Positions 30,907 to 48,916 of a stretch of 64,000 nucleotides of DNA are shown here, one piece after another. Each line of letters opens with the position of its first letter. The stretch's first letter is position 1. The DNA is from Nitrosopumilus sp. (GTDB lineage Archaea > Thermoproteota > Nitrososphaeria > Nitrososphaerales > Nitrosopumilaceae), in assembly GCA_965238275.1 (NCBI GenBank), contig OZ250186.1, forward strand, positions 672,001-736,000, given 5' to 3'. A model generated the notes under the pieces. That model did not search any database. It was given only the letters and a program-made list of their open reading frames with translations, and was not told the origin of the DNA. Made by a program: the position numbers and the translations under genes.

Positions 30907-30969
30907 CCGTACGTGCTGGAACCGTCCATCTTCATGGAATGCACCTCATGTGAGAATGCATGGTCCGGC

Positions 30970-32904
30970 TCAGGCCACCTTCTGATACGCCTCAGATTCC
31001 CCATAACCGACATCCTTGATCTGGCTCTTTCCTGCAGGAAGCGCGCGCACAAAGTCGTCAATGCTGATACCCCTTGTAATGTCCTCTTCCAGTCTGGTAA
31101 ACTCGATCCTGATCCTCTTTGCAGCCTCGGCCATCTCTTGACCGTGCGGCTCGATTATTGCATAGCAGACTGAATACCTCTTGATTGGTTCTGTCGGACC
31201 GCACGCCAGGGCGTGACCGTCCCCCTGTGGGATTATCCCGACTGCCAGCTTGAGGGTCTGCGGCTTGATAAAGTTCCTCTGTCCCTCGATGGTAAAGGAT
31301 CCCCTTGGCAGAAACTGTCCGGTGGGTGCCGACTTCTTTACCTGGTGCGGCATCACCCAGTATGCGCTCATCCCGTACATGCCCTCCCTCCAGGCCCTGC
31401 TGAAGCAGACTGTTGCATGTGCGACCTCGTTCATGCTGTCTGCCGGGGTGCCTGCTGCATCCTTTAGTATGAAGAACGGGGATCCGTTTACCTCTGCATG
31501 AAATATCCTGTCATTGTTCTGCATCTGTTTTCTTACCACCGCAGAGTTTGAGGCAACATCCCTTCCGCCCACTGCAAGCAGTCCGTCTGATGTGGGAAAC
31601 CACCTGTAACGCTCATACCAGCTCTTTCTCCTGATCTCCGAGGCCGTGACTGCACCCTTTTCTGATTCGCTTCTGTTCTGGAGATTGTCGATCTTCTGTC
31701 TTGTCTTGACCATGATCCTCTCGATTGACGGAACGGCTCTTGACTGGTGCTTTGCCTCGTCAAACAGGACGGATGCAATCGAGTGCAGCGGTGATTCGGG
31801 GTTTATCATGATCTTCTGGTCTGCAACTACCACCTGTGGGATCCCCTTCTCGCTTCCAAGCTCTGCATCATTCCCGGACAGGATCTGCCGGGCCCTGTCA
31901 TCCCGGATTGTGGTGATCCCCTGCGAGATCATTCCGAGCATGGAGTTTGCCACCGCCGTTATCGTCTTGGATCTCTCCTTTACGGTGTCGACTGCCTTCT
32001 CCTGCTCCTCAAGCTGCGTATGCAGCTCCTTGATCTTCTTTTCGGAGCCGCCTGACTGGATAGTTCTTCCCTCCCTTAGGAGCGACTCTGTAAAGACGGC
32101 ATCAAGCCCCCCGATGAAGTCATCGACTGGCTTGCATGACTCGTCTAGGGGATCCAGCGTGACTGGGAGGACCTCTGCCTGCTCGTCTCCCACTATTACG
32201 GGGTTGTGTCTTCCAGAGATCACGTCTGAGACAATCCCCTTGGTTGTCTCAAACACGCCCCTGATCTGCTCCGGGCTCAACTGGGTGCCTGCAGCCTTTG
32301 AGTCGATCTTGGCAATACCGAATATGCCTTCTACATACCTTCTTGGCAGCCCCAGTGTCCTTCCAAGCCATTTTGCAGCACCAAGTTCGGTCGTTCCAAG
32401 CCCGTCAAAGTCGGACCCTGTAATGTTGAATATGTCCAGACTGTTCTGCGGAGGCGGAACATACTCCAGCCCCACGCCAAGCTTCCTGTGCCTGACGTCG
32501 ATGGAGTGCTGTAGCGCAAGAATCTTCATCTGGCTGTTGCAGAGTATGATGTTGCCGTCGCCGAAGAACTCGCCTACCAGGACGAACTCCTTTTCAAATC
32601 CCTCAAAGACAAGATAGGCCACCCTCTCTGAGCCGATCTGCCGTATCTGCTTGAGCTTGAGCCGCAGCAGATCGCTGCGCAGCCTCCTTTGCAGCCGGTT
32701 CTCTGCAATCTGCTCTATTCTTACCGAGGTCAGCCAGATGCCTGACGTGGAGATCATCATGAAGATATCACTCTTCTCCGTGTGATGCATCTTGAAGAGT
32801 ATGCTGTCCCGGTTTATTCCATAAATATTACTGACGTAGTAGTCCCTGACCTCTTCAGATATCCTGTCCACAAGGTACCGCAGTTCAATTCCAGCCAGAG
32901 CCAT
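30970..32904 (-). CDS. rqcH: Ribosome quality-control factor RqcH/Rqc2 (NFACT family)
   Basis: EFFGDGNIIL, WYERYRWF, GGRD..SN, FHAE..GSP, P.GQFLP.GSF.I.G. Confidence 0.92.
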   Translation of the reverse strand: MALAGIELRYLVDRISEEVRDYYVSNIYGINRDSILFKMHHTEKSDIFMMISTSGIWLTSVRIEQIAENRLQRRLRSDLLRLKLKQIRQIGSERVAYLVFEGFEKEFVLVGEFFGDGNIILCNSQMKILALQHSIDVRHRKLGVGLEYVPPPQNSLDIFNITGSDFDGLGTTELGAAKWLGRTLGLPRRYVEGIFGIAKIDSKAAGTQLSPEQIRGVFETTKGIVSDVISGRHNPVIVGDEQAEVLPVTLDPLDESCKPVDDFIGGLDAVFTESLLREGRTIQSGGSEKKIKELHTQLEEQEKAVDTVKERSKTITAVANSMLGMISQGITTIRDDRARQILSGNDAELGSEKGIPQVVVADQKIMINPESPLHSIASVLFDEAKHQSRAVPSIERIMVKTRQKIDNLQNRSESEKGAVTASEIRRKSWYERYRWFPTSDGLLAVGGRDVASNSAVVRKQMQNNDRIFHAEVNGSPFFILKDAAGTPADSMNEVAHATVCFSRAWREGMYGMSAYWVMPHQVKKSAPTGQFLPRGSFTIEGQRNFIKPQTLKLAVGIIPQGDGHALACGPTEPIKRYSVCYAIIEPHGQEMAEAAKRIRIEFTRLEEDITRGISIDDFVRALPAGKSQIKDVGYGESEAYQKVA

Positions 32905-33112
32905 CGGGTTGTCACTGGGTATCCGGGTTTATACTTTTACTGTTTGTTGCATTTATCTGGAGTCACGAACCCCCATCACCCGGACGCGCATCTGGAGTAT
33001 GGGATTGAATTCTGGAGATCCTATGCATGAATTTATCCAGATAACTGCCCAATTCCCTTCATAAGCAAGGCTTTTATTCCAGAGGAAAAGTTGCAAATCT
33101 AGTGAATAATTA

Positions 33113-33358
33113 GTGTCCCAACCGAGCGGCTCAAAAAGACCTCTAACAACTCTTCAAAAAAGTACGAAAAAGAGGGTAACAGTAAGACTCAAGAATGAAG
33201 TCGAATACAAGGGGAAGATGGACAATGTTGATTCGTATATGAATTTGATTATGACTGATGCAGAGGAGCTACACGACGGTAGAGCCATTGCAAATTATGG
33301 CAGAGTGATTGTCAGGGGCAACAATGTCCTGTTTATCAAACTAGAAAATGAGCTCTAG
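33113..33358 (+). CDS. Sm/Lsm-like RNA-binding protein
   Basis: VRLKN..EY.G....D.YMNL...DAEE, VRGNNV. Confidence 0.93.
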   Translation: MSQPSGSKRPLTTLQKSTKKRVTVRLKNEVEYKGKMDNVDSYMNLIMTDAEELHDGRAIANYGRVIVRGNNVLFIKLENEL

Positions 33359-33370
33359 TTAGGCGATTTC

Positions 33371-34537
33371 ATGGCCAACGGTTTTCTGTTTACATCCGAA
33401 TCCGTAACAGAGGGGCATCCAGACAAGCTGTGCGACAACATCTCTGATGCATTCTTAGACGAGTATCTCAAACAGGACAGGGACTCGCGGGTGGCAGTCG
33501 AGACGATGGTGACTACTGATTTTGTGGCAGTCTCCGGCGAGGTAACATCCAAGGCTGACCTTGACAGGAAGGCACAGGAGGAACTGATAAGAAAGACGAT
33601 CAAGGAGATAGGATACGACAACAGGGATCTGATGTTTGATGCCGATACATGCCAGGTAAACCTGAGGCTGCACTCGCAAAGTCCGGATATCAGTCAGGGC
33701 GTGACTGCCACTCAGGACAGAGAACAGGGTGCAGGTGATCAGGGATTGATGTTTGGTTATGCGACAGACGAGACTGAGGAGATGATGCCCATGCCTATTC
33801 TGCTTGCGCACAGGCTGACTCAAAAACTCTCTGAGGTCAGAAAGAATGGAACCCTGCCATGGGTCAGGCCAGACGGCAAGTCGCAGGTATCTGTACGATA
33901 CGAGGACGGCAGGCCTGCTGAGATTGAGACGGTTGTGATCTCAACCCAGCACAGCCCGGAGATATCCCATGATATGATTACTTCTGAGATCACAGAGAAG
34001 GTAATCCGGCCTGTTCTAGGCGCGCGCTGGCGTGACGGCATTAAGATCCATATCAACCCTGCCGGAAAGTTTGTAATCGGAGGGCCCCACGGGGACGCCG
34101 GACTGACCGGAAGAAAGATCATCGTTGATACGTATGGCGGATTCGGCAGGCACGGCGGCGGAGCCTTTTCCGGGAAGGATCCCTCCAAGGTGGACAGATC
34201 CGCCTGCTACATGTGCAGGTATATAGCAAAGAATCTTGTTGCTGCAGGACTGGCCAGTCGGTGCGAGGTGCAGCTTGCATATGCAATCGGAGTGGCAGAG
34301 CCGGTATCCCTGTATGTAAACACGTTTGGAACAAACACAATTTCTGAAAAACAGATTGAGAGTCTGGTCAGGGAGAACTTTGACATGAAGCCGTCGGGAA
34401 TAATCTCGGAGCTGGACCTGAAGAGGCCGATATACAAAAAGACGGCATCATACGGGCATTTTGGAAGGGACGAGCCGGAGTTCTCATGGGAGAGAACCAA
34501 CAAAGCCGAAACCCTAAGAAGGTCTGCCGGACTCTAG
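33371..34537 (+). CDS. metK: S-adenosylmethionine synthetase (bacterial/eukaryal type)
   Basis: [35 protein letters not shown]. Confidence 0.97.
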
Positions 34538-35386
34538 AACCCCCGTCACCGATCGGAACCTCATCTTGGATACCCTTTGCAGTCTGGAATGATCCCCACA
34601 GAAGCCGCCTGCCAGTATGCCCAGATCGTCAACCCCAAAATACGTTCTCGGGTTAACTATTGCGGTGTGGTATGCCTCCTCCAGACTTATCCTCCTGATC
34701 TTCGTGTGGGCTCCTCCTCCTCCTCCTGCAAGGCACCTGGCATACTGCTCAAGGGTGACTGATTCGGGGCCTACAAGATCAAGTATCCTGTTTCTGAATC
34801 CAGGATATGTGACGGATCGAAGTATCACCTCTGAGACATCGTCTATGTGAACCGGCTGCATGGCATATCTGTCCGATCCAGGAATCTCAATTGTTCCATT
34901 TCCCATCTGCCTTCTGAAATGCCTTGTAAGGGAATCGCCTCTTCCCACTATGTACGAGGGCCGGAAGATGGTATGGTCCAGTCCCGACCCCGCAACGACC
35001 CTTTCGGCCTTGAATTTTGAGATAAAGTATGCCAGAGGCGTGCCTGCAGAGGCGCCCAGGCCGCTGACGTAAATGATCTTCTTAATTCGGGCACTCTTGC
35101 ACAGATCCACGGCATTATGCGCCGATTCTACGTTTACTGCATCATAGCCTGTCCTGACAGACTGCCTGCCGATCCCTACAAGATGAACCAGCGCATCTGC
35201 ATCGGCAGCCTCTGAGACTGCACGTCTTTCGGTATAGTCCCCTGATACGACTCCAGTCTCGCCATGGAATGTCTTGATGCTGTCCCTTGATATTGAGACC
35301 AGCCGCCGGTTGCCTCCTGCAAGGTACCTTCTGAGATTCCGCGCAACATAGCCGCTTGCCCCGGTAACCACCAGCTTCAGACCCAT
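34514..35386 (-). CDS. NAD-dependent epimerase/dehydratase (atypical SDR)
   Basis: [21 protein letters not shown]. Confidence 0.88.
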
Positions 35387-35450
35387 GGAGATACCGAGCC
35401 TCTTCTGACTTTAAGTCTATTTGGGGTAAACCGTTCCCGGCCCCTGCTGC

Positions 35451-36050
35451 TCATTCCGGCTTGGTAGCTGACACTATTGTTACCGGATTCCGTGCAAGCA
35501 TCATGGTGCCCGTGCTGGTCCTTCTGCTCTTGGAGATTGTAACCTGCGTGATGTCGACAGAATCAAACTCCAGCACGTCAAGCACCCGCAGTACGGCATA
35601 AAGCGTCTCGATCAGTATGGTTCCGATGACGATCCTTCCCCCGCCCTTGAGTCTCTTGTGGCACAGCTCCACTATAGCAGCAGTATCCCCACCCGTTCCG
35701 CCTATGAATACTGCATCTGCAGTGTCCATGTCCGGAATCCTCTCCTTGGCGTCCCCGTGAACCTGCAGGACGTTTGAGAGTCCGAACCTGCTGGCATTCC
35801 TTCCTGTCAGTTCTATTGCGTTGATGTCGCGGTCCACTGCAAGCACCCTGCCTGACTCCCCTATCTGGATGGCGGCCTCGACTGAGATTGAACCGCTTCC
35901 GCAACCGATGTCATAGACTGTCTGTCCTGGACGGAGCCTGGCCTTGCTGATCTGGATTACCCTTACCTCCTCCTTTGTTATCGGCACCTTCTCGGTGCGC
36001 TCAAACATCCCGTCTGGAATCCCGGGAGTCCTAAAGTCCCACATGTTCAC
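35451..36050 (-). CDS. cbiT: Cobalt-precorrin-6B C15-methyltransferase (decarboxylating)
   Basis: PITKEEVR, DIGCGSGSISVE, FIGG, ARNPV. Confidence 0.93.
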   Translation of the reverse strand: MNMWDFRTPGIPDGMFERTEKVPITKEEVRVIQISKARLRPGQTVYDIGCGSGSISVEAAIQIGESGRVLAVDRDINAIELTGRNASRFGLSNVLQVHGDAKERIPDMDTADAVFIGGTGGDTAAIVELCHKRLKGGGRIVIGTILIETLYAVLRVLDVLEFDSVDITQVTISKSRRTSTGTMMLARNPVTIVSATKPE

Positions 36051-36058
36051 TCTTCAGG

Positions 36059-36538
36059 CTAGACGTTGATCCCACTGGAGACGCTTCCCGCATTGGCTAA
36101 TGTATGGGTGACTATCCATGTAAACAGATACAAAAAGACATAGCTTCCGATTGCCTGCGTGACGACCTTCTTCCTGTCAGACGAGGCCAGTTGCATCTTC
36201 ATGTTCTTTGCAACCACTATAGTTGCAAGAAATATGATGATCATGAATCCGATTGAGGCCCACCTCTTGTCCTCCCCTTCTATATCCTCAAAGATGAATG
36301 TCGCGGCAACTCCTGCAATTACGGCAAGGCTTACCCGCAGCCAGTAGAGAAAGTTGAGTTTTCTGGTGTTCTCGCTGCTCCTGATCCCTTCCATCTTGGG
36401 CTCGCCTGAAGGTGCCGACGGCAGGGAGGTCCCGGAATCCTCCGCATTCGGGGTGGCATCCCCAGACGCACCGGATGGCACCTTCTTGCTGCCAGGATCA
36501 GACGTTGGTTGAGATCTCTTTTTTTTGAATCGTGCCAA
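36059..36538 (-). CDS. Hypothetical membrane protein (3 TM)
   Basis: Low-complexity N-terminus followed by three hydrophobic segments; TTTAAA box upstream. Confidence 0.75.
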   Translation of the reverse strand: MARFKKKRSQPTSDPGSKKVPSGASGDATPNAEDSGTSLPSAPSGEPKMEGIRSSENTRKLNFLYWLRVSLAVIAGVAATFIFEDIEGEDKRWASIGFMIIIFLATIVVAKNMKMQLASSDRKKVVTQAIGSYVFLYLFTWIVTHTLANAGSVSSGINV

Positions 36539-36706
36539 GTAAATTTCTAGCGTGTCTTCATCAAACCTTGTTTAAAATCTTTGGTAATTTTGGCTCTGTT
36601 CAATTATGGTGATCTGTAGCATTTGCTGTTCAAAAGAGGCATTCCTAAAATCTCGGAACGATTCTGGATTTTGCAGTCACTGCGACGATGCTTATGATTG
36701 CGACAG

Positions 36707-38147
36707 CTATAGCGGCGAGCGAAAGTTCGTGCAAACAGATCTCTCTGTAGCGTGTCCTGATGCTCTTTCCGGCGCTCTGTCAGACCTTCCAATATTGTCG
36801 TCGTTGTCGGGTCCAAGCCGACCTGTCGAATTGTTCATTCCAGAACCATCCGATCCGTGATCCTCGCGCCTTGTGACGACCTCGACACCCGCAATGGTGT
36901 CTCCACGATTCCCGTGGGCTTGGCCGCCAGTCTCCTCCGTATGGAGACAGTCATTATCCAGAATGTTTTTTGCCGCGTTCTTGTCGGCATGGTGGCACCA
37001 TCCGCATGAGACGCAGACAAATGATTCGCCGTTCCTGGATTTCTTGTCCACTACCCCGCAGGCAGCGCATCTCTGGCTTGTATGTGCGTGTTCCACGCGT
37101 CTTGAAATTCCGCCTTTCTTTTTCATCTGCCATTCAACCTGGCTCCGAAACTCGCCCATTCTGGAATAGGCCATCTCGCGGTTCAACCCCGTCTTTGAAG
37201 CGGCCCCGTTGGATCTCCTCATCCTGGTCAAATCCAGGTCTTCCAAGAACAATACGGACAGTCCTTTTGTTATCCGCCTGGCAATGTCGGCCTCGTTGTG
37301 TTTTTGCCTGTTTGATATCTTTTTCAATTCATGCGTTATCCTGCGGCCGATCTCTTTCCATCTTCTGGAGCCTGGCTGGCATCTTGATCTAAATGATTTC
37401 AGCTGATCAATCCTGTCGCCGTCATGCCTCTTGCAGCCTCCGGGGACACTGCAGTTTTTCATTCCCGTCCTCGTCTGCGACTGCCGCAAGGTGCCTGACT
37501 CCAAGATCCAGCCCTGCCTTGCATCCGCGGCCACCGCCTGTCGCAGGTTCGGGGTCTGGGACTTCTATCTGCAAATGCAGTTTGAATTCGCGATCACCAT
37601 CCTTGGTCTTACGCGTGACCTTGCCTGTGGTGTCAATCATCTGGAATGACACGAGCCTGCCTTCCGGAGCCTTCGTGCGTGGCCTTGCTTCCCCGAGTCC
37701 GGGCAGAAATACGGTGCCGTCGTCCCGCAGTTTTGGCTTTGCGCGTGAATTCAGCGAGCGCAGCCTGGTTGTTTTCCTGCCGCGCCTCATCAGGCTGGAC
37801 GGCTCGGTCCACCGATTGTGCTTGTACGTCTTCTTTTTCCCCAGCTTGATCTGTCTCTTGCGCCAGATGCGCTTGTTGTGCTTGAGCCGGTTTGCCTTGC
37901 GGAATTTGACTGCCGCCTGGAAAGCCTGTTTTGAGGCGGCCTCATGCATGTGGACGCTGCTGGCCAGGTTGAATTCCCTGCGCCATCCTGTTATCAGGTT
38001 GTTGACATCAAACTGTGTGATCCGTGAGTGTGCAAGTTTCATCATGATTGTCATGTCGTAAATGATGTCTGTTTCCCGGGAGCATTTCACGATCTTGCGT
38101 GACAGTTCCCGAGATTGTGTTATCTTGATGATTTTACTGACAATCAT
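36707..38147 (-). pseudogene. tnpB: TnpB RNA-guided nuclease, single +1 frameshift near 37455-37460 (about 479 aa if repaired)
   Basis: RuvC-I GLDLG in ORF 37422-38147; RuvC-II FLEDL, TSQRCAAC...CVSC zinc finger and RuvC-III HADKNAAKNI in ORF 36707-37534. Confidence 0.9.
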
Positions 38148-38215
38148 ACCTGTAGTTGGGATTTATTTTCTTAAAAAGGATCTCAAAAAATTGCACGAAC
38201 TTTCGCTTTTCACTA
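36710..38215 (-). mobile_element. TIR-bounded TnpB element with TA duplication at CTAG (IS630-like ends)
   Basis: TAGCGGCGAGCGAAAGTTCGTGCAA vs (rc) TAGTGAAAAGCGAAAGTTCGTGCAA, 21/25 with inner 17 bp perfect; junctions C-TA[element]TA-G. Confidence 0.9.
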
Positions 38216-38370
38216 TAGTACCATCATGGCAATCGTGCAGAACTCAAGTACGACGTTTTCCCATGCGACTTCCTCGCCAATTGGTCCTGTGAACTCGGTA
38301 TCTGGGAGACCGAAACCGTTGAAGGTAACAGTAACCTCTACCGGATCTGCGGAGGCCAGCGGTGCTGTGG

Positions 38371-38570
38371 GGCTCTGGTAAATTCTAGTGGGCTGATCAC
38401 CAAAATTTACCACCAAGGTGCTAGGATGACTTGTCTCACTTTTGAACAGGCCCGTAGAAGGTACCACACTTTTGAACACCGTGATGAAACATGGTAAGAT
38501 TGAATCTGGAGAAGATCCAAAAACACACTTTTGAAGTGAACGGCAGAGATCACCAGAATTTAACAGAGCC
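38371..38570. mobile_element. 200-bp MITE, copy 1
   Basis: Ends GGCTCTGGTAAATTCTAGTG and CACCAGAATTTAACAGAGCC; 4 differences from 41117-41316; internal CACTTTTGAA x3. Confidence 0.88.
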
Positions 38571-38682
38571 TACGGGACCGCGTTTGCCTGGATGGGACTC
38601 GTGCCACTGCGACGTGTTTTGCGCAGTCTTTGTACCTGCTGCGAATGGTCATACACGTTGCTCCGACCATGCAAAAAATTCG

Positions 38683-38771
38683 GGCAGTAATCATGAAGAA
38701 TCAGCATTTATCCCTTGATCCATGCTCATCGATACTCTTACCCTTCGATGTATTCTTGGCTGATTACTGCC
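38683..38771. repeat. 89-bp miniature inverted-repeat element
   Basis: GGCAGTAATCAtgAAGAAT ... ATTCTTggcTGATTACTGCC; no TSD seen. Confidence 0.55.
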
Positions 38772-39215
38772 TTGATTAGTTAACGTCGTTGTGAAATAAA
38801 AGTATATTTTAGGAATAGTGAACGCCTGTTTGATTTTTCCATTGTTTCTGAATGATTCAAAAGCGGGGGGAGGCTGTTGGAAATTATGGGTCCCTTCCGT
38901 ACCCTGCATGCGTGCGGTTCGGGTCCGGCTTGGCGATCCAGAAGCGGGGATTGGGAAGTCAAGTCAGTTCGCCTGGCTGCGATTCTGACTGCGGAGTTTC
39001 AGCCGCAATCGGATCCGGCACAGTACGCAAAAACCTGACTGGGTAGGCGTTCACGGTCACTGCGATGTGACAGCTCTGGGGCAGGGGCATCTGATATCTG
39101 CCAGGAGGCAGGACTGCCGGTGGCAGCTGCCTTGAAACGAATGCAGGCAGTTCGGGAAAATTCCAAATCCGAAGGGGCGTCAAATCATTTAATGTATGAA
39201 CGCCACTAAAAAATA

Positions 39216-39902
39216 GTGCAAAAGGATAGGCTGTCTGAATGGTTTGTGCCCAAGTTCGGCTCTAGGAATTTTCGGCTATCAATAGGAATCCTGTTTCTGC
39301 CCTACACCGGAATGGTGGTATCCTTTACCGTGTGGGGCTCCCTCTCGGTGGACTTCAGTCTTGACAGGCTGGCGTCAGCCTGCCTGCTCTATTTCCTTGC
39401 AATTGGGATATCCGCACACTGTCTTGACGCACTAGGAAGCAAAAAAAAGCCTTGGGGACGCATATCGCCATCAAAGCTCTGGCTAGTATCGACGGTTTCC
39501 CTGACTGCCTCCCTTTCCATCGGGCTGTACTATGCATTTTTGGATTCCTGGCTGCTGTTCCCGATAGGGGCCATCGAGGTGTTCTTTCTTTTGGCGTATA
39601 ACCTGGAGCTGTTTCGCGGCAAATTCCACAACAACACGTCGTTCGTCATATCCTGGGGGGTCCTGCCAGTTTTTGCCGGCGCCTCAATCCAGTCAAACGC
39701 CGTATCAGTCGAGACCGTAGTGCTTTCCGCGATTGCGGGACTTGCAAGCTATGTCCTCATAACCACGTCCAGAAAATACAAGGAGCTGAAGCGTCAGAAC
39801 GTAGGCCGCGGGTCGTACTACAGAAAGGAGGCAGTTCTCAAGGTGACAAGCCTGGCGGTGATATCTGGCACGGCCTGCTTTTTCATCTTACGGTATCTTT
39901 AA
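39216..39902 (+). CDS. Multi-TM membrane protein, possibly UbiA prenyltransferase-like
   Basis: About 8 hydrophobic segments, HCLDALG after TM2, LAYN motif; family call tentative. Confidence 0.6.
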   Translation: MQKDRLSEWFVPKFGSRNFRLSIGILFLPYTGMVVSFTVWGSLSVDFSLDRLASACLLYFLAIGISAHCLDALGSKKKPWGRISPSKLWLVSTVSLTASLSIGLYYAFLDSWLLFPIGAIEVFFLLAYNLELFRGKFHNNTSFVISWGVLPVFAGASIQSNAVSVETVVLSAIAGLASYVLITTSRKYKELKRQNVGRGSYYRKEAVLKVTSLAVISGTACFFILRYL

Positions 39903-39911
39903 TTCATGTAA

Positions 39912-40364
39912 ATGGGATACCATTGTATGAAGTCAGGTTCCGATATACTTCTGGCCAGGATACTGGACGCCCCCGTGGGCCAGGTGGTCACCGTCCTGGG
40001 GGAGGTCCTTGACTGTGCCGTCCAGCTGCAGGTGGTGGAGCAGAACGCCGTTGCGCCCAATCAGTTCGTAAGGAAGGTCGCGATTACCGCGCGCGGGCTG
40101 CCTGTCATAAAGGCAAGCGTGAAATTTGACTCCGCCGTGCTGCCTGAGTCCGTCATGGGCGAGCTTCTGAGGAAGAAGCGCGGCATCGGGACCATTCTCA
40201 ACGTCAATGGCATCGCCGCAACCAGAAGGATCCTGTCCCTGGACCTGCATCCGGGTCAGGGCATAACCTTGAGGGAGTACGAACTCGTTCACGGCGGGGC
40301 CGTGTGGTTTACCATATTTGAGGAGATAAACCTAGACAGTCTTGGTTCCGACAAGCACGGCTGA
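39912..40364 (+). CDS. Chorismate pyruvate-lyase (UbiC/DUF98)-like protein
   Basis: L.VVEQ, R.V.I, GIG.IL, REY, I.EE pattern of the chorismate-lyase/UTRA fold. Confidence 0.6.
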   Translation: MGYHCMKSGSDILLARILDAPVGQVVTVLGEVLDCAVQLQVVEQNAVAPNQFVRKVAITARGLPVIKASVKFDSAVLPESVMGELLRKKRGIGTILNVNGIAATRRILSLDLHPGQGITLREYELVHGGAVWFTIFEEINLDSLGSDKHG

Positions 40365-41015
40365 GGAGCCCCACGTCAGATCCTGCCTGCGGGTTTCCAG
40401 TCCGTGATCTTCCATGGCCTCCTCGTACTCCTGCACCCAGTTTGAGGCCCTTATCAGGCGGGGCAGGTCGGCGAAGACCTGTCTCCAGCTTGGGGTGAAA
40501 AGGCCCGCGAGATTCAGCAGCCTGAAATAAAAATCCCACATTCTGCGCACCGGGCCGGCCTTCGGATATGTGAAGTCATGCAGAATTATCTTCCCGCCGG
40601 CATCGAGGTGGTCAAGGCAGCTCCTGATCAGGGTATCCGGCGTGCAGTATTTTGGCAGGTATGACGCAGTGATGCAGGAGAACTTTTCCCCGAGGCTGAG
40701 CTTTTCGGCATCCTGGTTTACAAAGGAGATGTTCCGGTGCGGGGCCGACTTCTCCATGGCCTTCTCAAGGTACCCCTGGGTAACGTCGACGCCCACTATC
40801 TCCGCGCCCGGCAGCATTTTTGCAATCTGTCTCGTAAGGATGCCCGTACCGCAGGCAAGATCCAACACGTTTTTTTCATCAGACAGGTGCTCCAGAATCT
40901 TACGTTTCCAAAGGCCGTCCTTGCCAAAGGTGGTCCAGCTGACTATCCTGTCATACGAGCTGGCGTTGCTGTTAAAAAATTTCGGGACCATGCACTTCGG
41001 ACTCTCTTCGGCCAT
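40332..41015 (-). CDS. Class I SAM methyltransferase, UbiE/MenG-like
   Basis: F...A..YD.....TFG.D..WKR, VLDLACGTG, DAEKL. Confidence 0.85.
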   Translation of the reverse strand: MAEESPKCMVPKFFNSNASSYDRIVSWTTFGKDGLWKRKILEHLSDEKNVLDLACGTGILTRQIAKMLPGAEIVGVDVTQGYLEKAMEKSAPHRNISFVNQDAEKLSLGEKFSCITASYLPKYCTPDTLIRSCLDHLDAGGKIILHDFTYPKAGPVRRMWDFYFRLLNLAGLFTPSWRQVFADLPRLIRASNWVQEYEEAMEDHGLETRRQDLTWGSSAVLVGTKTV

Positions 41016-41116
41016 GCTTACTGCCGGTTTTTTTGTCTAAAGTAGTTTGTGAGTAGGCAGCCTCCCTTAACGACTAGGGTCCGCGGGGCCGCCTTGGGGG
41101 AGGGGGATGCCTGACG

Positions 41117-41316
41117 AGCTCTGGTAAATTCTAGTGATCTGATCACCAAAATTTACCACCAAGGTGCTAGGATGACTTATCTCACTTTTGAACAGGCCCG
41201 TAGAAGGTACCACACTTTTGAACACCGTGATGAAACATGGTAAGATTGAATCTGGAGAAGATCCAAAAACACACTTTTGAAGTGAACGGCAGAGATCACC
41301 AGAATTTAACAGAGCC
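41117..41316. mobile_element. 200-bp MITE, copy 2 (direct repeat of 38371-38570)
   Basis: 196/200 identical to copy 1. Confidence 0.88.
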
Positions 41317-41546
41317 AGAAGATCCAGAAAGCTCACTTTAGAACAGTAAATCCCTCAGATCACCATATTTGAACAGAACCGTAATTTTCAGTCACGAGCC
41401 GCATCATGTACCCCACACGGCATGCATCCGGGTGCTGCATGGACGGTCAATGCCTTCCGTGCAACGGTCCTGCGGTGCCGCCGTCTGAATGCGCTTCTGA
41501 CATGAATACCTGCACCGTTTAAATCATCAGACATACTTTCCAGAAC

Positions 41547-41765
41547 GTGCCTGACATGCCCGACAGAAGCCTTCTCAAAAAGGGCTCGCTTGTTGCAATA
41601 GAGACAAAGAGGAATCAGAAGACAGGAAACCTGACGTATGGTGCGATAGAATCCATTCTGACTTCAAGCCGATTCCACCCGCACGGGATAAAAGTCAGAC
41701 TGCAGGACGGGCAGGTCGGACGCGTCAAGCAGATGATTGGTTCCATGCCTGGGGATCCGGACTGA
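41547..41765 (+). CDS. YwbE family protein
   Basis: Q.TG.LT.G....ILTSS.FHPHGIKVRL.DGQVGRV. Confidence 0.9.
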   Translation: MPDMPDRSLLKKGSLVAIETKRNQKTGNLTYGAIESILTSSRFHPHGIKVRLQDGQVGRVKQMIGSMPGDPD

Positions 41766-41937
41766 TCAGGTTCCCTGGATGTCATCAGATGGCCGGCCTC
41801 TGAACCACCATTACTGCATTTCTGGCGTTCTTTGTTACCAGCACGGCCATAATGCATGCCACACCAATGGAATCTTCGCCTTCCGGACTCGCCGTGACAG
41901 AAACCCTAAATTTTCTGCATGTGTTCTGATAGTTGAA

Positions 41938-42597
41938 TTGATTCCCACCGGCCTCCAAAAAATTGACAGGTTTCTGTCCGGTGGAATCCCGGACGGTGTA
42001 ATTACCGATATCTTTGGGGAGAACGGGACAGGCAAGACACAGATGCTGCTCCAGCTTGCAGCCGGCTCGATCATGGACGGGGGGCGCGTTCTATACCTGG
42101 ATACAACAGGCGGATTCAGACCCGAGCGCATCTTAAACATCCGGAATATTCGGGACTCGGTTCCGGATGTTCTTGACAGGATTACCGTGTCCCGCATAAT
42201 CAACACATCCGAGCAGGTAAGGGCGGTTCAAAACCTAAGGGGCGGTACATTCTCGCTGATCGTAATTGACAACATTACTGATCTCTTCTCCTACGAGTAC
42301 AAGGAGAAGGTACATGAGAAGAACATCCTGTTCATGAGGCACATGCATGAACTGTCCCGGTTTTCCACAGAATCCAGAATCCCGGTGGTTGTTACAAACA
42401 TGATCAGAATGTTTCAGGATCGCGAGGTTGAAAACATGAAGGCCGCCATTGATCCATTCACGCACATCAAGATTCATCTGAGCAGGAGGAGGAGGGCCCA
42501 ATCGGGTTTCCGGGGAAGGATCTGGTGGGCCATGGCAGGCATGGACTTCTCCTACATGATTCACGCATCAGGCATATCCGAGGACGGTTCTGTATGA
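41938..42597 (+). CDS. RadB/Rad51-like RecA-superfamily ATPase
   Basis: IPTG...ID..L.GG, GENGTGKT, YLDT.GGFRPERI, IVID; TTG start at 41938 inferred. Confidence 0.85.
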   Translation: MIPTGLQKIDRFLSGGIPDGVITDIFGENGTGKTQMLLQLAAGSIMDGGRVLYLDTTGGFRPERILNIRNIRDSVPDVLDRITVSRIINTSEQVRAVQNLRGGTFSLIVIDNITDLFSYEYKEKVHEKNILFMRHMHELSRFSTESRIPVVVTNMIRMFQDREVENMKAAIDPFTHIKIHLSRRRRAQSGFRGRIWWAMAGMDFSYMIHASGISEDGSV

Positions 42598-42669
42598 CGC
42601 GGCAGAACCAAACGATTGCCCAAAAGGCATTCTCGCTAGATATTTAACAGTTGGAGTCATAGCCTATGA

Positions 42670-42789
42670 ATGGCAGGAATATTTGACTCAATCCCAATAA
42701 TCACCGTAGCCATGTTTATCATCGGCTTGGTTGGCGTAGTTGCTTATGAAAGAACACGATCAAACACGGCAGACAAACCAGACTCTTAG
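42670..42789 (+). CDS. Putative 39-aa single-TM small protein
   Basis: MAGIFDSIPIITVAMFIIGLVGVVAYERTRSNTADKPDS; ATATTTAA box about 25 bp upstream. Confidence 0.5.
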   Translation: MAGIFDSIPIITVAMFIIGLVGVVAYERTRSNTADKPDS

Positions 42790-45481
42790 ATCCCTGTTTG
42801 AAAAATTCGGTTTTTCCAACCTGACTGAGATTCAGAAAAAGGCATCTCCGACAGTCCTGCAGAAGCGGGACTGTCTGATCATTGCCCCGACAGGCTCGGG
42901 CAAGACCGAGTGCTCTGCAATCCCAATCTTCTCCCTTCTCAGGGGCTGCCGGGCAGACGGACGAATCAAGGCACTCTACATAACCCCACTCCGCGCGCTG
43001 AATCGCGACGTATTCCGAAGAATCACAAGATATGCCAACGAATCGGGCCTGTCCATAGCGATCAGGCACGGCGACACCTCCCGGGGGGACAGGAAGCGAA
43101 TCACCGAGAACCCGCCTGACATCCTCATCACAACACCTGAGACACTGGTCATTCTTCTGACACAGCCAAAGGTGCTTGACGCACTATCCGAACTGGAATG
43201 GGTCATAGTCGACGAGGTTCACGAGCTGCTTGCAAGCGAGAGGGGCGCCCAGCTCTCGCTGAGTATCGAGCGGCTGGAATTCAATTCCCGGTACTCCCTT
43301 ACAAGGGTGGGGCTGTCTGCCACAGTGGGCAACCCCATGCATGCTGCAAAGTTTCTGGTAGGCACCAAGCGAAAGTGCCGGATAGTAAGGGACACGTCGG
43401 TGAGGCGGTACGATGTGGATATAAGATATGTGGAAGGCACCATCACTGACGTCGCAGAGGAGATCATACGGTACATCCAGAAGATGGAACTTGACTCGCC
43501 GATACTCCTCTTTACCAACACGCGGGGCGAGGCGGAATTTCTGGCCTCAATTCTCAAGGAGAAATCCTCGATGAGGATAGATCTGCACCACGGTTCCCTG
43601 TCCCGGGAGGTCCGGGAGGACACTGAGGAGTCCCTTCGCCAGGGAGGGCACCACATCGTGGTGTGTACCTCGTCACTGGAACTGGGACTGGATATAGGCT
43701 CAGTCGAACTGGTAGTCCATTACGGCTCCCCAAGACAGGTATCAAAGTTTGTCCAGCGGATAGGGCGCAGCAGACACAACAGGGCAGAGTCGGCCCAGGG
43801 CCTGATAATTACAAACAATCCCGACGACGAGTTTGAGGCAAGAGCCATACTTGAGCGCATACAGGAGGGTTCGATCGAGGAACAGAAGATTCATTCAGAC
43901 TCCCTTGACGTCCTGGCACACCATCTGGTCGGGCTTGCCATGCAGCTTGGCGAGGTCACTGTGGAACAAGCATACACGCTGGTCACAAAGGCCTACCCGT
44001 TCCGGAACCTGCATCTGAGTGATCTGGGAGGCGTGCTTGATCTGCTTGACTCCAACTTCATCCTTCTCTTTGACCGGAACCGTATGTCCTTTAGGAAGAA
44101 GGGTGGCTCCTTCCGGTACTACTTTGAGAATCTCTCGACCATCCCGGATATCCTAAAGTTCAAGGTCTTTGACAGCGTGGGCAAGAGAATCATAGGCTCG
44201 CTGGACCAGAGGTTTGTAGGCGACTTTGGAGACACGGGCAACATCTTTGTGCTCAAGGGGTCGCAGTGGAAGATACTCAACGTGGATGAAAAGTCGTTTT
44301 CCGTCAACGTCGAACCGTTTCGGGGCGGCGGGATCACCGTCCCATACTGGGAGGGAGAGAACATTCCAATAGACTACAGGACGGCAGAAAAGGTGGCAGG
44401 ATTCCGCACCCGGGTCAGGCATGGCTCCGCCAAGCTCTCAAGCAGAGTGATCCGGGATCTGGACTTTGAGATGCCTGAAGGCAACCACCTTACAGTAGAA
44501 TCAAACAGGATCCAGGGATCCATAGTGATTCACTCCTGCCTTGGAACAAGGATCAACTCGACCCTGTCTACGCTCCTCTCCTCCATGCTCTCTGCAGTGC
44601 TGGGATCCACAGTCGACTCCCGCTCAGACGGCTACAGGATAGCCCTGTCGTCCCGATCCAGAATATCCCGGGATGTGTTCCTTGGAGTCCTGAATGACGA
44701 CTATGACCTCTACTCCGTGGTGGGGGCGTCCCTGACTGGAACGCACAACGTCAACTGGAGGACATGGTGCGTTGCCAAAAAATTCGGAATAGTGGGGCGC
44801 GGAGCCATCTATGAACGCAAGTCTGCCAGATTCCTCTACGAGCGGTACTCCAAGACCGTGCTTGTCGACGAGGCGCTCCGCGAACTGTTCCATGACAAGT
44901 ACGACTTGGACGGAACAGAAGAGATCCTCAAGGGGATCCGCCGGGGGGAGACTCGGGTGGAGTGGCTTGAAGTCGACAAATTCTCCAAGCTGGCAGAGCC
45001 CATTCTGGACCACACCTCAAAGTACTATGCCTCACCTGCAAGCCTTGACAAGGGAATCATTGATCTTGTCAAGGCAAGGCTGAACAAGACAAGGCACCGA
45101 CTGCTCTGCGCGCGGTGCGGAAGATGGGAGAAGGTCGTCGAGACCCATCAGGTGAGCGGCCCCTTGGCATGCCCATACTGCAAGTGCAGGCAGATCACCA
45201 CCACGTTCTACTCTGACTATGACCTGCAAAAGATCATCCAAAAGAAGCACGGAGGAAAAAGCCTGTCTGCGCAAGAACAGCACAAGTTTGAGCGCGCCTG
45301 GAAGGTCTCCTCGCTGGTGGAGAATTTTGGCAAGACTGCAATCGTTGTAATGTCCGGGTACGGGGTGGGTGCAGACACTGCGGCCAGGATTCTGAGGAAC
45401 ATGGTGGATGAGGAGTACCTCTTCAAACAGATCTACGAGGCAGAAAGGCAGTATGTCGTGACCCGGGGATTCTGGGACTAG
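42740..45481 (+). CDS. lhr: Lhr-like SF2 helicase with C-terminal zinc ribbon
   Basis: APTGSGKT, PLRALNRD, DEVH, SAT, HHGSLS, LELGLD, QRIGRSRH. Confidence 0.92.
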   Translation: MLMKEHDQTRQTNQTLRSLFEKFGFSNLTEIQKKASPTVLQKRDCLIIAPTGSGKTECSAIPIFSLLRGCRADGRIKALYITPLRALNRDVFRRITRYANESGLSIAIRHGDTSRGDRKRITENPPDILITTPETLVILLTQPKVLDALSELEWVIVDEVHELLASERGAQLSLSIERLEFNSRYSLTRVGLSATVGNPMHAAKFLVGTKRKCRIVRDTSVRRYDVDIRYVEGTITDVAEEIIRYIQKMELDSPILLFTNTRGEAEFLASILKEKSSMRIDLHHGSLSREVREDTEESLRQGGHHIVVCTSSLELGLDIGSVELVVHYGSPRQVSKFVQRIGRSRHNRAESAQGLIITNNPDDEFEARAILERIQEGSIEEQKIHSDSLDVLAHHLVGLAMQLGEVTVEQAYTLVTKAYPFRNLHLSDLGGVLDLLDSNFILLFDRNRMSFRKKGGSFRYYFENLSTIPDILKFKVFDSVGKRIIGSLDQRFVGDFGDTGNIFVLKGSQWKILNVDEKSFSVNVEPFRGGGITVPYWEGENIPIDYRTAEKVAGFRTRVRHGSAKLSSRVIRDLDFEMPEGNHLTVESNRIQGSIVIHSCLGTRINSTLSTLLSSMLSAVLGSTVDSRSDGYRIALSSRSRISRDVFLGVLNDDYDLYSVVGASLTGTHNVNWRTWCVAKKFGIVGRGAIYERKSARFLYERYSKTVLVDEALRELFHDKYDLDGTEEILKGIRRGETRVEWLEVDKFSKLAEPILDHTSKYYASPASLDKGIIDLVKARLNKTRHRLLCARCGRWEKVVETHQVSGPLACPYCKCRQITTTFYSDYDLQKIIQKKHGGKSLSAQEQHKFERAWKVSSLVENFGKTAIVVMSGYGVGADTAARILRNMVDEEYLFKQIYEAERQYVVTRGFWD

Positions 45482-46899: not shown

Positions 46900-47104
46900 G
46901 CCATTACGTGGTAACCCCGTTCCATTAATAAGAATTTCATTATGGCCGGTTCGGGTATGGATATGGGAATCTGCAGGTGCACATGCGGTAGACGCAACCT
47001 GTGCTGCAGGACGGTCGTATCCTGCACCATCATATCCCAAGGCACGCACAGCCTGCCGTGGCTGCAAGAATTGACTAAATAAGCGGCGGCATGATGATCC
47101 CTGC

Positions 47105-48043
47105 ATGATGTCCATTGACGTAAGACACCTCTCAAAGTCGTACGGCTCAGTCAGGGCAGTGGACGACATTACACTTTCAGTCAGACAGGGCCAGGTGTTT
47201 GGATTTCTGGGACCCAACGGGGCAGGAAAGTCAACCTCCATCAAGCTTCTCACCACCCTCATTCCCCCCTCAAGCGGTTCGCTTTCCATACTGGGCGTGG
47301 ATGCAATAAGGGATCCCCTCAGGGTGCGTCACAGGATAGGAGTTGTGCTGCAACAGCCAAGCTACGAGTCGACGCTCTCAGTTGAGAAGGCACTTGACAA
47401 GTACGGGATGATGTGGAACGTACCCAAGAGAGAGCGCCGGATCAGGACAGAACAACTGTTGAAGGATTTTGATCTTGTAGAAATCAGAAAGAAGCGAAAC
47501 GAGGATCTCTCCATAGGACAGCGGAGAAGGGTCCAGGTGGCCCGCGAGTTCATGCACGACATGGATCTTCTGTTTCTGGACGAGCCTACTGCCGGACTGG
47601 ATCCCGGTGCCAGGCGGAACCTGTTGGACTACCTAAAGAACAAGGTGCGTGACGGGCTGACAATATTCTACACCACACACATACTGACTGAGGCCGAGTA
47701 TCTCTGTGATGAGATTGCAATAATCGATCATGGGAGGATACTTACTGTTGACACTCCTGATGCGCTAAAGAACAGATTTGGCAAGGAGAAGACCATCAAG
47801 ATCCATCTCTTAAAGAGGATGCCAGAGGTATCCCCGCTGCTCTCCAAAATACCGGACTGCAGGATTAGTCTTGAGAGCGGGACTGACATCATAATATATT
47901 CAAGACAGTCGGAGCTGGTGCTGCAGCAGGTATTGAAGATACTCAGCGACAACCATATCACAGTAGATGATCTCTCGGCGGTTCCGACAAACCTTGAGGA
48001 GATATTTCTAAAGATGGTGGGGAAGAATGCACCCGATAATTAG
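47105..48043 (+). CDS. ABC-2 exporter ATP-binding subunit
   Basis: GPNGAGKS, LSIGQ, LFLDEPT, TTH. Confidence 0.95.
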   Translation: MMSIDVRHLSKSYGSVRAVDDITLSVRQGQVFGFLGPNGAGKSTSIKLLTTLIPPSSGSLSILGVDAIRDPLRVRHRIGVVLQQPSYESTLSVEKALDKYGMMWNVPKRERRIRTEQLLKDFDLVEIRKKRNEDLSIGQRRRVQVAREFMHDMDLLFLDEPTAGLDPGARRNLLDYLKNKVRDGLTIFYTTHILTEAEYLCDEIAIIDHGRILTVDTPDALKNRFGKEKTIKIHLLKRMPEVSPLLSKIPDCRISLESGTDIIIYSRQSELVLQQVLKILSDNHITVDDLSAVPTNLEEIFLKMVGKNAPDN

Positions 48044-48788: not shown

Positions 48789-48874
48789 TATCCTGCCGGC
48801 CTCCGGTACAGCCAGTTTACGCATCAGGTACTGTCATGATGTCCATGGATGCCAGACCATGTTTTGGAGCAGTG

Positions 48875-48916
48875 CACCACCACCACCACCACCACCACCA
48901 CCACCACCACCACCAC
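48875..48916. repeat. (CAC)14 microsatellite
   Basis: Fourteen perfect trinucleotide units, intergenic. Confidence 0.95.

Follow-up and report, generated by a model that had tools for sequence, protein, structure and literature searches.

The window analysed here is a 64-kb stretch of chromosomal DNA from Nitrosopumilus sp., an ammonia-oxidising archaeon. At an AT-rich intergenic position, with a lineage-specific membrane-protein gene (36059-36538) on one side and a radB-like gene (41737-42597) on the other, it carries a 4789-bp segment (36592-41380) bounded by TIRs, whose parts are listed in Table 1. The outer 25-bp TIRs agree at every position except 3 and 13 (23/25), and the complementarity of the outer ends (GGCTCTGTTCAATT and GGTTCTGTTCAAAT) reaches 51 nt at 82%. 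Both borders are flanked by the same 8 bp, GTAATTTT, of which these are the only two copies on either strand of the window; a random 8-mer would match at two given positions with p = 1.6e-5. A degenerate TIR pattern allowing up to three mismatches recovers six sites in the window (0.00 expected from 100 shuffles), and the subterminal motif CACTTTTGAAC occurs eight times (1.27 expected), each time within one of the two arms or two MITEs.

Table 1. Coordinates of the segment's components and of two context features elsewhere in the window.
Feature	Position	Strand	Remarks
Target-site duplication, left copy GTAATTTT	36584-36591	.	Single copy at the homologous place in L001
Left arm	36592-36644	+	Outer TIR (36592-36616) and subterminal sequence with one CTCTTTTGAAC motif (36628-36638)
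PEFG-CTERM fragment, C-terminal 20 codons and stop (36645-36647)	36645-36707	-	P0241 residues 85-104; C-terminus of P0244
Nested TnpB element, 1506 bp	36710-38215	-	25-28-nt TIRs; flanked by TA (36708-09 and 38216-17)
PEFG-CTERM gene tail, retained N-terminal part	38216-38370	-	Cut exactly at the MITE1 end
MITE1, 200 bp	38371-38570	+	Own TIRs; three CACTTTTGAA[C/G] motifs; no target duplication
645 bp 5' of the first cargo gene	38571-39215	.	No recognisable coding content; 7 ORFs of 55-75 aa
Cargo gene 1, UbiA-like polytopic membrane protein, 228 aa, intact	39216-39902	+	Pfam UbiA
Cargo gene 2, DUF98/chorismate-lyase fold, 150 aa, intact	39912-40364	+	Predicted structure
Cargo gene 3, UbiE/COQ5-type class I SAM methyltransferase, 227 aa, intact	40332-41015	-	Pfam Ubie_methyltran
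Upstream region of the methyltransferase gene, 101 bp	41016-41116	.	
MITE2, 200 bp	41117-41316	+	Direct repeat of MITE1; no target duplication
Right arm, 64 bp	41317-41380	+	Outer TIR (41356-41380); one CACTTTAGAAC motif
Target-site duplication, right copy GTAATTTT	41381-41388	.	
Context: IS5-family IS, not part of the element	7106-8459	-	18-bp perfect TIRs (AACTCTGTTTCCTAATTA); 8-bp duplication CAGAAACC; 386-aa transposase (NF033579, 193 bits)
Context: isolated 47-bp hairpin of two MITE-type ends, outside the element	1478-1524	+	

The two arms are closer in sequence to each other than to the ends of the inner MITEs. The right arm aligns with the final 64 bp of the MITE and begins directly after the end of MITE2. 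MITE1 and MITE2 are themselves 98% identical (196/200, differing at positions 1, 21, 22 and 63) and, in direct orientation, bracket a 2.5-kb three-gene block. Their 8-bp flanks differ (tgctgtgg/tacgggac for MITE1, gcctgacg/agaagatc for MITE2), and neither copy therefore has a duplication of its own. No DDE transposase domain was detected in the six main and nine minor ORFs of the element, which yielded solely TnpB domains; the one mobile-element gene inside is a frameshifted tnpB within a separately bounded nested element. The original prediction, made from the letters of the window, had proposed the 25-bp TIRs with their flanking 8-bp duplication, the 64-bp right arm, the missing DDE gene, inner MITEs devoid of duplications and a PEFG gene truncated by one of them, and we located every listed feature where it had been placed.

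Gene content and the nested TnpB element

The gene tail comprises 71 codons, equals the last 71-72 residues of full-length relatives and aligns with residues 362-433 of a PEFG-CTERM protein of 433 aa in another genome. Its assignment to PEFG-CTERM, as first proposed, holds for the full-length relatives (P0244 scores 49.3 bits with TIGR04296), whereas in the fragment the motif has decayed to LEFC and the score of the fragment alone, 18.3 bits, lies below the 25-bit cut-off. The ORF P0241, from another genome, encodes the same chimera of MITE left end and gene tail (81/84 identical) without interruption and scores 38.3 bits. Comparison with this uninterrupted copy indicates the borders of the TnpB element, whose tnpB is split by a frameshift into two ORFs (37422-38147 and 36707-37534). 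The TnpB element arrived after the MITE::gene-tail junction had formed.

Beyond MITE1, the stretch 5' of the first cargo gene has no Pfam family in its seven ORFs and no match among 80 related loci. The first cargo protein falls below the cut-off for Pfam UbiA (E 7e-6), and its Atlas cluster is named "putative UbiA family prenyltransferase". It has 2229 homologues; the 120 matches listed are 227-231 aa long and 73-96% identical, and the named ones among them belong to Nitrosopumilus or Nitrosarchaeum. The second cargo protein, for which 41 representatives were found, has no family match in Pfam or NCBIfam. Its AlphaFold2 model (pLDDT 91) gave 2nwi (AF1396, DUF98) as the best Foldseek match (TM 0.75, E 1e-9), and the chorismate lyase 1g1b was also matched. 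The third matches Pfam Ubie_methyltran with 62.5 bits over positions 8-233 of 233, and it does not reach the cut-offs of the NCBIfam UbiE/MenG models. The three genes plausibly form a putative aromatic-prenyl/quinone-type module. Taken with the gene tail, the conservation of the UbiA-like member among the listed Nitrosopumilaceae homologues supports the view that the cargo is host-type DNA.

The empty site in a sister genome

The flanks of the segment are ~95% identical in the sister genome L001 (OZ244651.1), which aligns to window positions 29727-36591 (94.8%, 6884 columns) and 41383-49151 (94.6%, 7774 columns). Collinearity runs to the base just before the left end and resumes inside the right repeat, with no element sequence between. 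At the homologous spot L001 has an unrelated IS481-like/IS630-like insertion of its own (L001 positions 6875-9650), whose flanking duplication, AATTTTTAGTCACA, is 14 bp long (6861-6874 and 9651-9664). Once this insertion is conceptually removed, L001 reads ...TCTTTGGTAATTTTTAGTCAC..., which differs from the predicted empty site by a single C/T change: the flanks are contiguous and hold a single GTAATTTT-type copy. The segment is therefore an insertion whose empty site can be reconstructed, the very check that the original prediction had proposed.

The wider neighbourhood was compared at 80 related loci (within 10 kb of a radB-like gene), drawn from a scanned collection that excludes the window's own genome. 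None of the 80 encodes any of the three cargo proteins, contains the TIR pattern or gives a sequence match to the element. In contrast to the cargo, the epimerase is present in 67 of 80 and Lhr in 65 of 80, and the epimerase lies upstream of radB in 60 of the 61 loci that have at least 5 kb of upstream sequence. The three genes are not ancestral at this locus. Relatives without an empty site and with these genes in place would have spoken against a transposon, and we find the reverse on both counts.

The opposite polarity would make the segment ancestral and have it deleted in L001, for example during the IS481-like insertion, with the matching 8-mers as coincidence. An insertion is indeed present at this spot in L001, and adjacent deletions are among the effects that IS elements can have. 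Such a deletion, however, would have to end at the exact TIR tips, where the L001 flanks stop and resume around a single GTAATTTT-type copy. It would also have to accommodate the cargo-free state of all 80 related loci and the small chance of the 8-mer match given above, for a sequence with no other copy in the window. Moreover, the L001 insertion retains both copies of its 14-bp duplication intact, which speaks against a concomitant deletion. This polarity is strongly disfavoured, and we give it almost no weight.

We consider it similarly very improbable that the segment is a recent foreign island, introduced by virus or plasmid integration and only incidentally ending in MITE sequences. Mobile elements abound in the lineage, as shown by the IS5, IS481-like, IS66, IS630-like and TnpB elements in the window and L001. 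At the site itself, however, there is no integrase, att-like structure or tRNA, and the segment ends in TIRs flanked by a target duplication. The G+C content, 0.46-0.57, is similar to that of the surroundings (~0.52), and the closest relatives of the UbiA-like protein among the matches listed are 96% and 88% identical, inside or close to the 90-98% range of the flank proteins between window and L001.

Proposed assembly and mobilization of the element

Taken together, we think it probable that 36592-41380 is a non-autonomous, TIR-bounded, host-gene-carrying transposon that was moved in trans. Both outer arms fall into a single sub-type of a MITE family whose ends have GG tips, a CTGTT core, G at position 7 and subterminal CACTTTTGAAC repeats. 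These arms may have been recognised as a pair of ends by a DDE transposase whose gene lies elsewhere in the genome and which would have moved all the intervening DNA, duplicating 8 bp of target upon insertion. The interior is a mosaic, in which the 71-codon tail, from the gene of a PEFG-CTERM surface protein, is followed by two MITEs of a second sub-type around the 2.5-kb block. This block contains three intact, conserved Nitrosopumilaceae genes together with their upstream regions, and would derive from a donor locus by either relocation or duplication. The TnpB element entered the gene tail later. Since neither inner MITE has a duplication and one of them abuts a truncated gene, we infer that MITE copies had earlier undergone recombination, cointegrate resolution or adjacent deletion.

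The outer ends being arms of 53 and 64 bp, with the right arm starting at the MITE2 end, the interior may also have entered a short element in situ. Under such a stepwise assembly, there would have been no transposition of the 4.8 kb as a whole. Instead, a ~0.5-kb element (left arm, gene tail, one MITE and right arm) would have transposed and made the GTAATTTT duplication, and a circle with one MITE and the three-gene block would have integrated by recombination at the resident MITE. The expected product is MITE-cargo-MITE in direct orientation without new duplications, which is the arrangement of the near-identical MITE1 and MITE2 and a pattern made by IS26-type translocatable units, as described in the available text of PMC7986276. 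The MITE1::gene-tail part moreover occurs in another genome, as P0241. However, the cargo-free intermediate is hypothetical, and this route differs from the transposition of the whole segment solely in the order of events. We regard it as unlikely. Because the short precursor already holds a captured gene fragment, the element would even then be a cargo-bearing non-autonomous transposon.

Of the broader interpretation first proposed, the insertion with its empty site, the transposase-less organisation and the host-type, non-ancestral cargo stand. A recurrent, accreting "system" does not follow from the present data, which hold this one instance of the cargo element, one protein-level trace elsewhere of the same MITE::gene-tail junction (P0241), and a TIR pattern that recurs at none of the related loci.

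Candidate transposase families

Of the families first suggested (IS6, IS1595, IS1 or IS5), no single one is singled out, and the ends together with the 8-bp duplication appear to suit IS6-like and IS5/IS903-like elements about equally. The IS6-type transposase corresponds to Pfam DDE_Tnp_IS240, and no IS6-type transposase was matched among the 68 window ORFs scanned. The ends themselves have the GG tips, G at position 7, and cTGTt and caaa motifs that, with an 8-bp duplication, characterize IS6/IS26-like elements in section 18 of PMC7986276 and the available text of PMC6807381.

On the IS5/IS903 side, 12 of the first 15 bases of the left end are identical to the IS903B ends (GGCTTTGTTGAATAA..., plasmid record). 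The duplication here is 8 bp, unlike the 9 bp made by IS903, and the resident IS5-family IS likewise makes 8 bp. This IS (Table 1), the only one in the window with an 8-bp duplication, has the CTCTGTT core in common with the element ends, but its tips read AAC instead of GGC and the subterminal motif is absent from it. An autonomous partner with matching ends was not found within the 64-kb window. The ISPna2 group of IS1595 (ISfinder) has GGCnnTG ends and an 8-bp duplication, a rule that the GGCTCTG end and 8 bp of the element would presumably suit; the 68 window ORFs yielded no IS1595-type transposase domain.

Comparison with known systems

Pack-MULEs of plants have Mutator-type long TIRs, 9-10-bp duplications, a MULE transposase partner and mostly captured fragments. 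Like them, the element is transposase-less, TIR-bounded and contains captured host DNA, including a gene fragment. Unlike them, it has 25-bp TIRs, an 8-bp duplication and three intact genes, resides in an archaeal host and shows no Mutator-type domain in the scanned ORFs. We reject kinship, and the label "Pack-MULE-like" of the original prediction is retained as an analogy only. Transposase-less gene-carrying elements are already known in bacteria, as MIC231, MITE/TIME composites and IS26 pseudo-compound transposons, and since these are closer prokaryotic precedents, the novelty of the element is lower than first implied.

The mobile insertion cassettes of Bacillus cereus (MIC231) consist of one or more passenger CDS between two IS-type inverted repeats, with a target duplication and no transposase; according to the available text of PMC6199540, they measure about 0.7-3 kb, have IS231 ends, and their trans-mobilisation by the cognate IS transposase has been demonstrated experimentally. 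The element described here likewise has TIRs at both ends, passenger CDS, no transposase of its own and a target duplication, supplemented by the empty site of a relative, and a similar mobilization in trans is proposed for it. It differs in its size (4.8 kb, or 3.3 kb minus the TnpB element), its archaeal host and its interior of complete MITEs and a gene fragment, and its movement in trans is inferred.

In Pseudomonas, miniature elements mobilise intervening DNA as TIME-driven mosaic non-autonomous transposons (PMC4133298, available text), and MITE pairs likewise mobilise the integrons or resistance genes between them (PMC10969869, available text). The lack of a transposase, the composite-transposon look, the AT-rich target and the short duplication are shared with these. 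In the same texts, however, such composites have Tn3-family ends, 5-6-bp duplications and complete miniature elements at both borders. Unlike those of the TIME-COMP type, both borders here are incomplete MITEs, arms of 53 and 64 bp and of one sub-type; the complete MITEs, which are of the other sub-type, occupy internal positions as direct repeats, and 8 bp of target are duplicated.

The pseudo-compound transposons and translocatable units of IS26/IS6, as presented in the available text of PMC7986276 and PMC6807381, share with the element the end motifs, the 8-bp duplication and direct repeats around a cargo without duplications of their own. In the Nitrosopumilus element, by contrast, these repeats are 200-bp MITEs rather than ISs and lie internally, and the element terminates in an inverted pair of arms that belong to another sub-type.

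Ends and target-site duplication

The element, a transposase-less cargo transposon between a membrane-protein gene and a radB-like gene, has GGCTCTGTTCAATTATGGTGATCTG as its left tip and the reverse complement of GGTTCTGTTCAAATATGGTGATCTG as its right tip. These outer terminal inverted repeats (TIRs) are identical at 23 of 25 positions and show complementarity out to 51 nt at 82% (inverted pair I1). The 8-bp sequence GTAATTTT is found immediately outside both TIRs and nowhere else in the 64-kb window on either strand, where the chance that two given positions share an 8-mer is 1.6e-5. Scanning the window with a degenerate pattern for the element end (GGYTCTGKTMAAWTHTRGTGATC, up to 3 mismatches tolerated) reveals six sites, against 0.00 expected from shuffles: both outer ends, both ends of the inner miniature element MITE2, the right end of its counterpart MITE1, and a lone site at 1478. 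The left end of MITE1 fails the pattern at the 3-mismatch limit.

None of the ORFs of the element (6 main and 9 minor examined) contains a DDE domain, and Rfam, applied to the whole window, returned three tRNAs only, none of them inside or next to the element. The feature is real, and the original prediction had correctly described its TIRs, target-site duplication, interior order and lack of a DDE gene.

An empty site in a sister lineage

A genome scan with the radB-like flank protein as query, keeping 10-kb flanks, provided 80 loci for comparison. One of these, the sister-genome locus L001 on contig OZ244651.1, is collinear with window positions 29727-36591 (94.8%) and 41383-49151 (94.6%), with the similarity running through the left GTAATTTT to its final base and picking up again within the right copy. 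Between the two collinear stretches, L001 carries 2776 bp of its own sequence, namely an IS481-like element that encodes an rve domain and matches the copy at window 59500-60634 at 97% identity; nested in this IS481-like element is an IS630-like one (DDE_3 domain). A 14-bp duplication, AATTTTTAGTCACA, surrounds this whole insert (L001 6861-6874 and 9651-9664). Without the insert and one duplication copy, L001 reads ...AAAATCTTTGGTAATTTTTAGTCACAAACC...; without the element, the window reads ...AAAATCTTTGGTAATTTTCAGTCACGAGCC...; and the empty-site sequence of the element is ...TCTTTGGTAATTTTCAGTCAC.... The empty site that had been predicted is present in the sister lineage once the insert of L001 is conceptually removed. 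We find a TIR-bounded, transposase-less segment with an 8-bp duplication at a site that lacks it in the sister genome.

The three cargo proteins had no tblastn match in any of the 80 radB-like loci, blastn of the entire element against the same loci gave zero matches, and the TIR pattern matched 0 of 80. The alternative that the three genes are ancestral at this locus and the duplication a coincidence was rejected on the L001 comparison together with the absence of the cargo from all 80 loci. The cargo trio is not ancestral at the radB-like locus.

Of the proteins encoded left of the site, the CbiT-like methyltransferase and the small membrane protein were matched in L001 only (1 of 80 loci each); the epimerase matches 67 of the 80 loci and Lhr 65. 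The epimerase lies upstream of radB in 60 of the 61 loci having at least 5 kb there, at a median distance of 1515 bp; the distance is longer in L001 (4350 bp) and in the window (6351 bp). We note that 59 of the 60 relatives with this arrangement have the epimerase in the orientation opposite to that of the window and L001, that the SAM-synthetase gene is likewise reversed wherever present among 12 loci inspected, and that the window and L001 share the inserted CbiT-like methyltransferase and 159-aa membrane protein (region 33371-36538). The insertion site lies within a lineage-specific rearranged region.

The unrelated elements of the two genomes have overlapping targets (window 36584-36591; L001 6861-6874) within about 16 bp of AT-rich intergenic sequence, which suggests an insertion hot spot upstream of the radB-like gene. 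The two genomes differ further in a 1.29-kb insertion of L001 (17374-18664), which has inverted ends (CAGTTAAGTCAAATGTGC...), adjoins the tRNA gene of window 48986-49058 and is absent from the window, and in the copy number of a 24-bp tandem repeat array (50561-50848; Pfam PT-type repeat) within the GrpE gene, in the part encoding its N-terminal region.

Interior organization

Features of the element and its borders, in window coordinates
Feature	Position	Strand	Length	Description
Left duplication copy	36584-36591		8 bp	GTAATTTT
Element	36592-41380		4789 bp	between the two duplication copies
Left arm			53 bp	leftmost interior part
Gene tail		-		interrupted by the nested TnpB element
Nested TnpB element	36710-38215		1506 bp	bounds set with P0241 as uninterrupted reference
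MITE1	38371-38570		200 bp	inner miniature element
Spacer	after MITE1		645 bp	no recognisable coding content
Cargo gene 1	39216-39902	+		UbiA-like; Pfam match under cut-off
Cargo gene 2	39912-40364	+		no sequence-based family
Cargo gene 3	40332-41015	-		UbiE/COQ5-type methyltransferase
MITE2	41117-41316		200 bp	101 bp past cargo gene 3
Right arm			64 bp	rightmost interior part
Right duplication copy	41381-41388		8 bp	GTAATTTT

MITE1 and MITE2 are direct repeats with 4 mismatches in 200 positions, every one of them in the left third, and their 8-bp flanks are unrelated to one another. The last 64 bp of the MITE align to the right arm, and the outer arms resemble each other more closely than they do the inner MITE ends. 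The motif CACTTTTGAAC occurs eight times in the window versus 1.27 expected (at least 8 copies in 0 of 100 shuffles), and all eight copies fall within the two arms and two MITEs; we infer that it is a family-specific subterminal site. Pfam assigned no family to seven small ORFs of the spacer or to two other minor ORFs.

With the nested element omitted, the gene tail reads ...TFNGFGLPDTEFTGPIGEE...LEFCTIAMM...AVAIISIVAVTAKSRIVPRF-stop. The 49 residues encoded by 38222-38368, searched against longer proteins, gave 4 matches among 40 candidates. Three of the four are proteins of 400-433 aa with a clear PEFG-CTERM domain (TIGR04296, 47.7-49.3 bits versus a cut-off of 25), among them the full-length relative P0244 on a 2,459,686-bp contig, and the tail corresponds to the C-terminal 71-72 residues of these relatives at 78% identity. 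The window fragment reaches 18.3 bits for the same model (cut-off 25), a low score due to decay of the motif to LEFC.

The fourth match, P0241, a 104-aa protein on a 2,325,306-bp contig, represents the same chimeric ORF that is found at window 38216-38479: residues 1-33 come from the left part of MITE1 and are followed by the gene tail. Consequently, the MITE1::gene-tail junction is present in a second genome. Since P0241, identical to the window ORF at 81 of 84 positions, is uninterrupted, the TnpB element of the window arrived later. The nested element has inverted ends of 25-28 nt (pair I4) starting with TAG, with TA on either side, and its tnpB is divided between two overlapping ORFs, which cover TnpB model positions 79-222 and 239-387. 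The TA at the 36708-38217 borders is presumably a duplication around it. Its architecture resembles the IS630/Tc1 type more closely than IS200/IS605. A second, truncated copy with the same ...CTA/TA ending persists as a remnant at 59452-59499 and 60634-60845; within it sits the IS481-like IS at 59500-60634 (353-aa rve transposase), with a 15-bp duplication, ACGTCAAACTGCGTG.

Cargo genes

For the UbiA-like protein 2229 homologues were found; among the 120 listed, lengths range from 227 to 231 aa and identities from 73 to 96%, and those named belong to Nitrosopumilus or Nitrosarchaeum. In comparable genomes the radB-like flank protein is approximately 60-65% identical, and the UbiA-like protein, on its listed homologues, is therefore the more conserved of the two. 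The two nearest cluster representatives in that listing share 96% and 88% identity with the UbiA-like protein, values within or near the 90-98% identity of flank proteins between the window and L001. An origin of the cargo within its own lineage, rather than a distant import, would fit these identities.

The cluster name of the UbiA-like protein in the Atlas is 'putative UbiA family prenyltransferase'; its structure model (pLDDT 44.7 from an 18-row alignment) is too poor for use. The 150-aa product of cargo gene 2, with 41 representatives in 1.84 billion, yields a confident model (pLDDT 91) whose best matches are AF1396, a DUF98 protein (TM 0.75, E 1e-9), and chorismate lyase. Taken from these annotations, the trio suggests a putative aromatic-prenyl/quinone-type module.

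Candidate transposase families

No transposase matching the element ends was found among the window ORFs scanned. Pfam analysis of 68 window ORFs reveals transposases of IS5 type, rve type (four) and IS66 type, and none of IS6 or IS1595 type. Three families are possible: IS6-like, IS5/IS903-like and IS1595 (ISPna2 group). The element ends have GG tips, a G at position 7, a CTGTT core and CAAT/CAAA, with a duplication of 8 bp. Compared against the published motif description, these are the end features and duplication length of IS6/IS26 and many archaeal 'IS6' members (PMC7986276; PMC6807381). In the IS6 family, the direct repeats around a cargo as a rule lack their own duplications. Similarly, the element end is identical to the IS903B end, taken from a plasmid record, at 12 of 15 positions. 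The resident IS5-family element at 7106-8459 (NF033579), a complete IS, shares the 8-bp duplication and has a CTCTGTT core as in the element ends. As the partner itself it was rejected, since its AAC tips differ and it holds none of the eight subterminal motif copies; it serves as a family-level lead only. The ISPna2 group of IS1595 has GGCnnTG ends and an 8-bp duplication, a rule that the element ends would fit.

We note that the window contains at least six transposase genes in 64 kb (including the rve type), unusually many for a Nitrosopumilaceae genome. An IS66-family transposase of 574 aa lies at 56799-58523. An rve-type (IS481-like) IS is present as two 100% identical, inverted 1434-bp copies (15329-16762 and 19194-20627), separated by 2.4 kb in which a third rve ORF lies together with the gene for ribosomal protein S6e; the pair could serve as an inversion substrate or form a composite-like arrangement that encloses a housekeeping gene. 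Between cbiD and cbiG, the low-G+C stretch 1001-2000 (0.38) holds a 47-bp hairpin formed by two MITE-type ends (1478-1524), two small AT-rich ORFs assigned to no family, and a stretch of about 60 bp that is duplicated in tandem (1660-1780).

A proposed route of assembly and movement

To account for this organization, we consider it most likely that a DDE transposase encoded elsewhere in the genome bound the two outer arms, perhaps also making contact via the subterminal motif CACTTTTGAAC, and moved the segment as one. The interior would have been built before this movement through events at the MITE copies: the copies may have recombined with one another, a MITE+cargo circle may have integrated, or an adjacent deletion may have taken place. 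Each of these would explain both the inner MITEs without duplications and the gene cut exactly at a MITE end. The main rival, which we hold less probable, is stepwise assembly, in which a short element with the order arm, gene tail, MITE, arm came first and the three-gene block was gained later at the resident MITE; it differs from prior assembly of the interior solely in the sequence of steps.

As noted, the 2.33-Mb genome that encodes P0241 shares the MITE::gene-tail junction. A broader proposal, which we put forward tentatively and consider rather doubtful, is that this MITE family may act as a gene shuttle in an IS-rich ammonia-oxidising archaeal lineage. Its ends could bracket and relocate conserved, probably indispensable host genes (the UbiA-like/DUF98/UbiE-type trio), such that part of core metabolism would ride on a transposase-less transposon, with the composite persisting in more than one genome and growing by recombination at internal MITEs. 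It would then be an archaeal counterpart of mobile insertion cassettes (MICs) and IS26 pseudo-compound transposons, made from MITEs rather than ISs.

Relation to known systems

Nitrosopumilaceae genomes are usually described as small, streamlined and poor in mobile elements; the window reveals a lineage of this family with many IS types. It also provides a base-resolved case in which three intact, conserved host genes were put at a new chromosomal site by a transposase-less element, and so documents that MITEs can underlie the movement of genes in archaea. Its ends, subterminal motif, 8-bp duplication and empty site are all defined, a starting point for tracing the partner transposase and for asking whether such movement reshapes archaeal gene order in this family.

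Nitrosopumilaceae are not among the archaeal MITE hosts named in the available part of a MITE review (PMC10969869). We found no archaeal cargo-carrying MITE or MIC in the literature searched (including PMC13343696), the partial coverage of which leaves absence unproven. SMN1 of Sulfolobus, considered as a large non-autonomous precedent, is described as a 320-bp MITE (PMC3718332) and was set aside.

The principle is not new, and equivalent logic is already established in bacteria. Miniature elements of Pseudomonas have been shown experimentally to mobilise intervening DNA (PMC4133298), and the MITE review describes such mobilisation for resistance genes and integrons (PMC10969869). A MIC, by its definition, consists of two inverted repeats without a transposase around at least one coding sequence and is mobilised in trans (PMC6199540). 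All of these structural traits are found in the element, with partner IS and trans-mobilisation putative here. In sum, this ammonia-oxidising archaeon harbours a non-autonomous cargo transposon that belongs to a kind already known from bacteria and whose cargo consists of conserved host genes.
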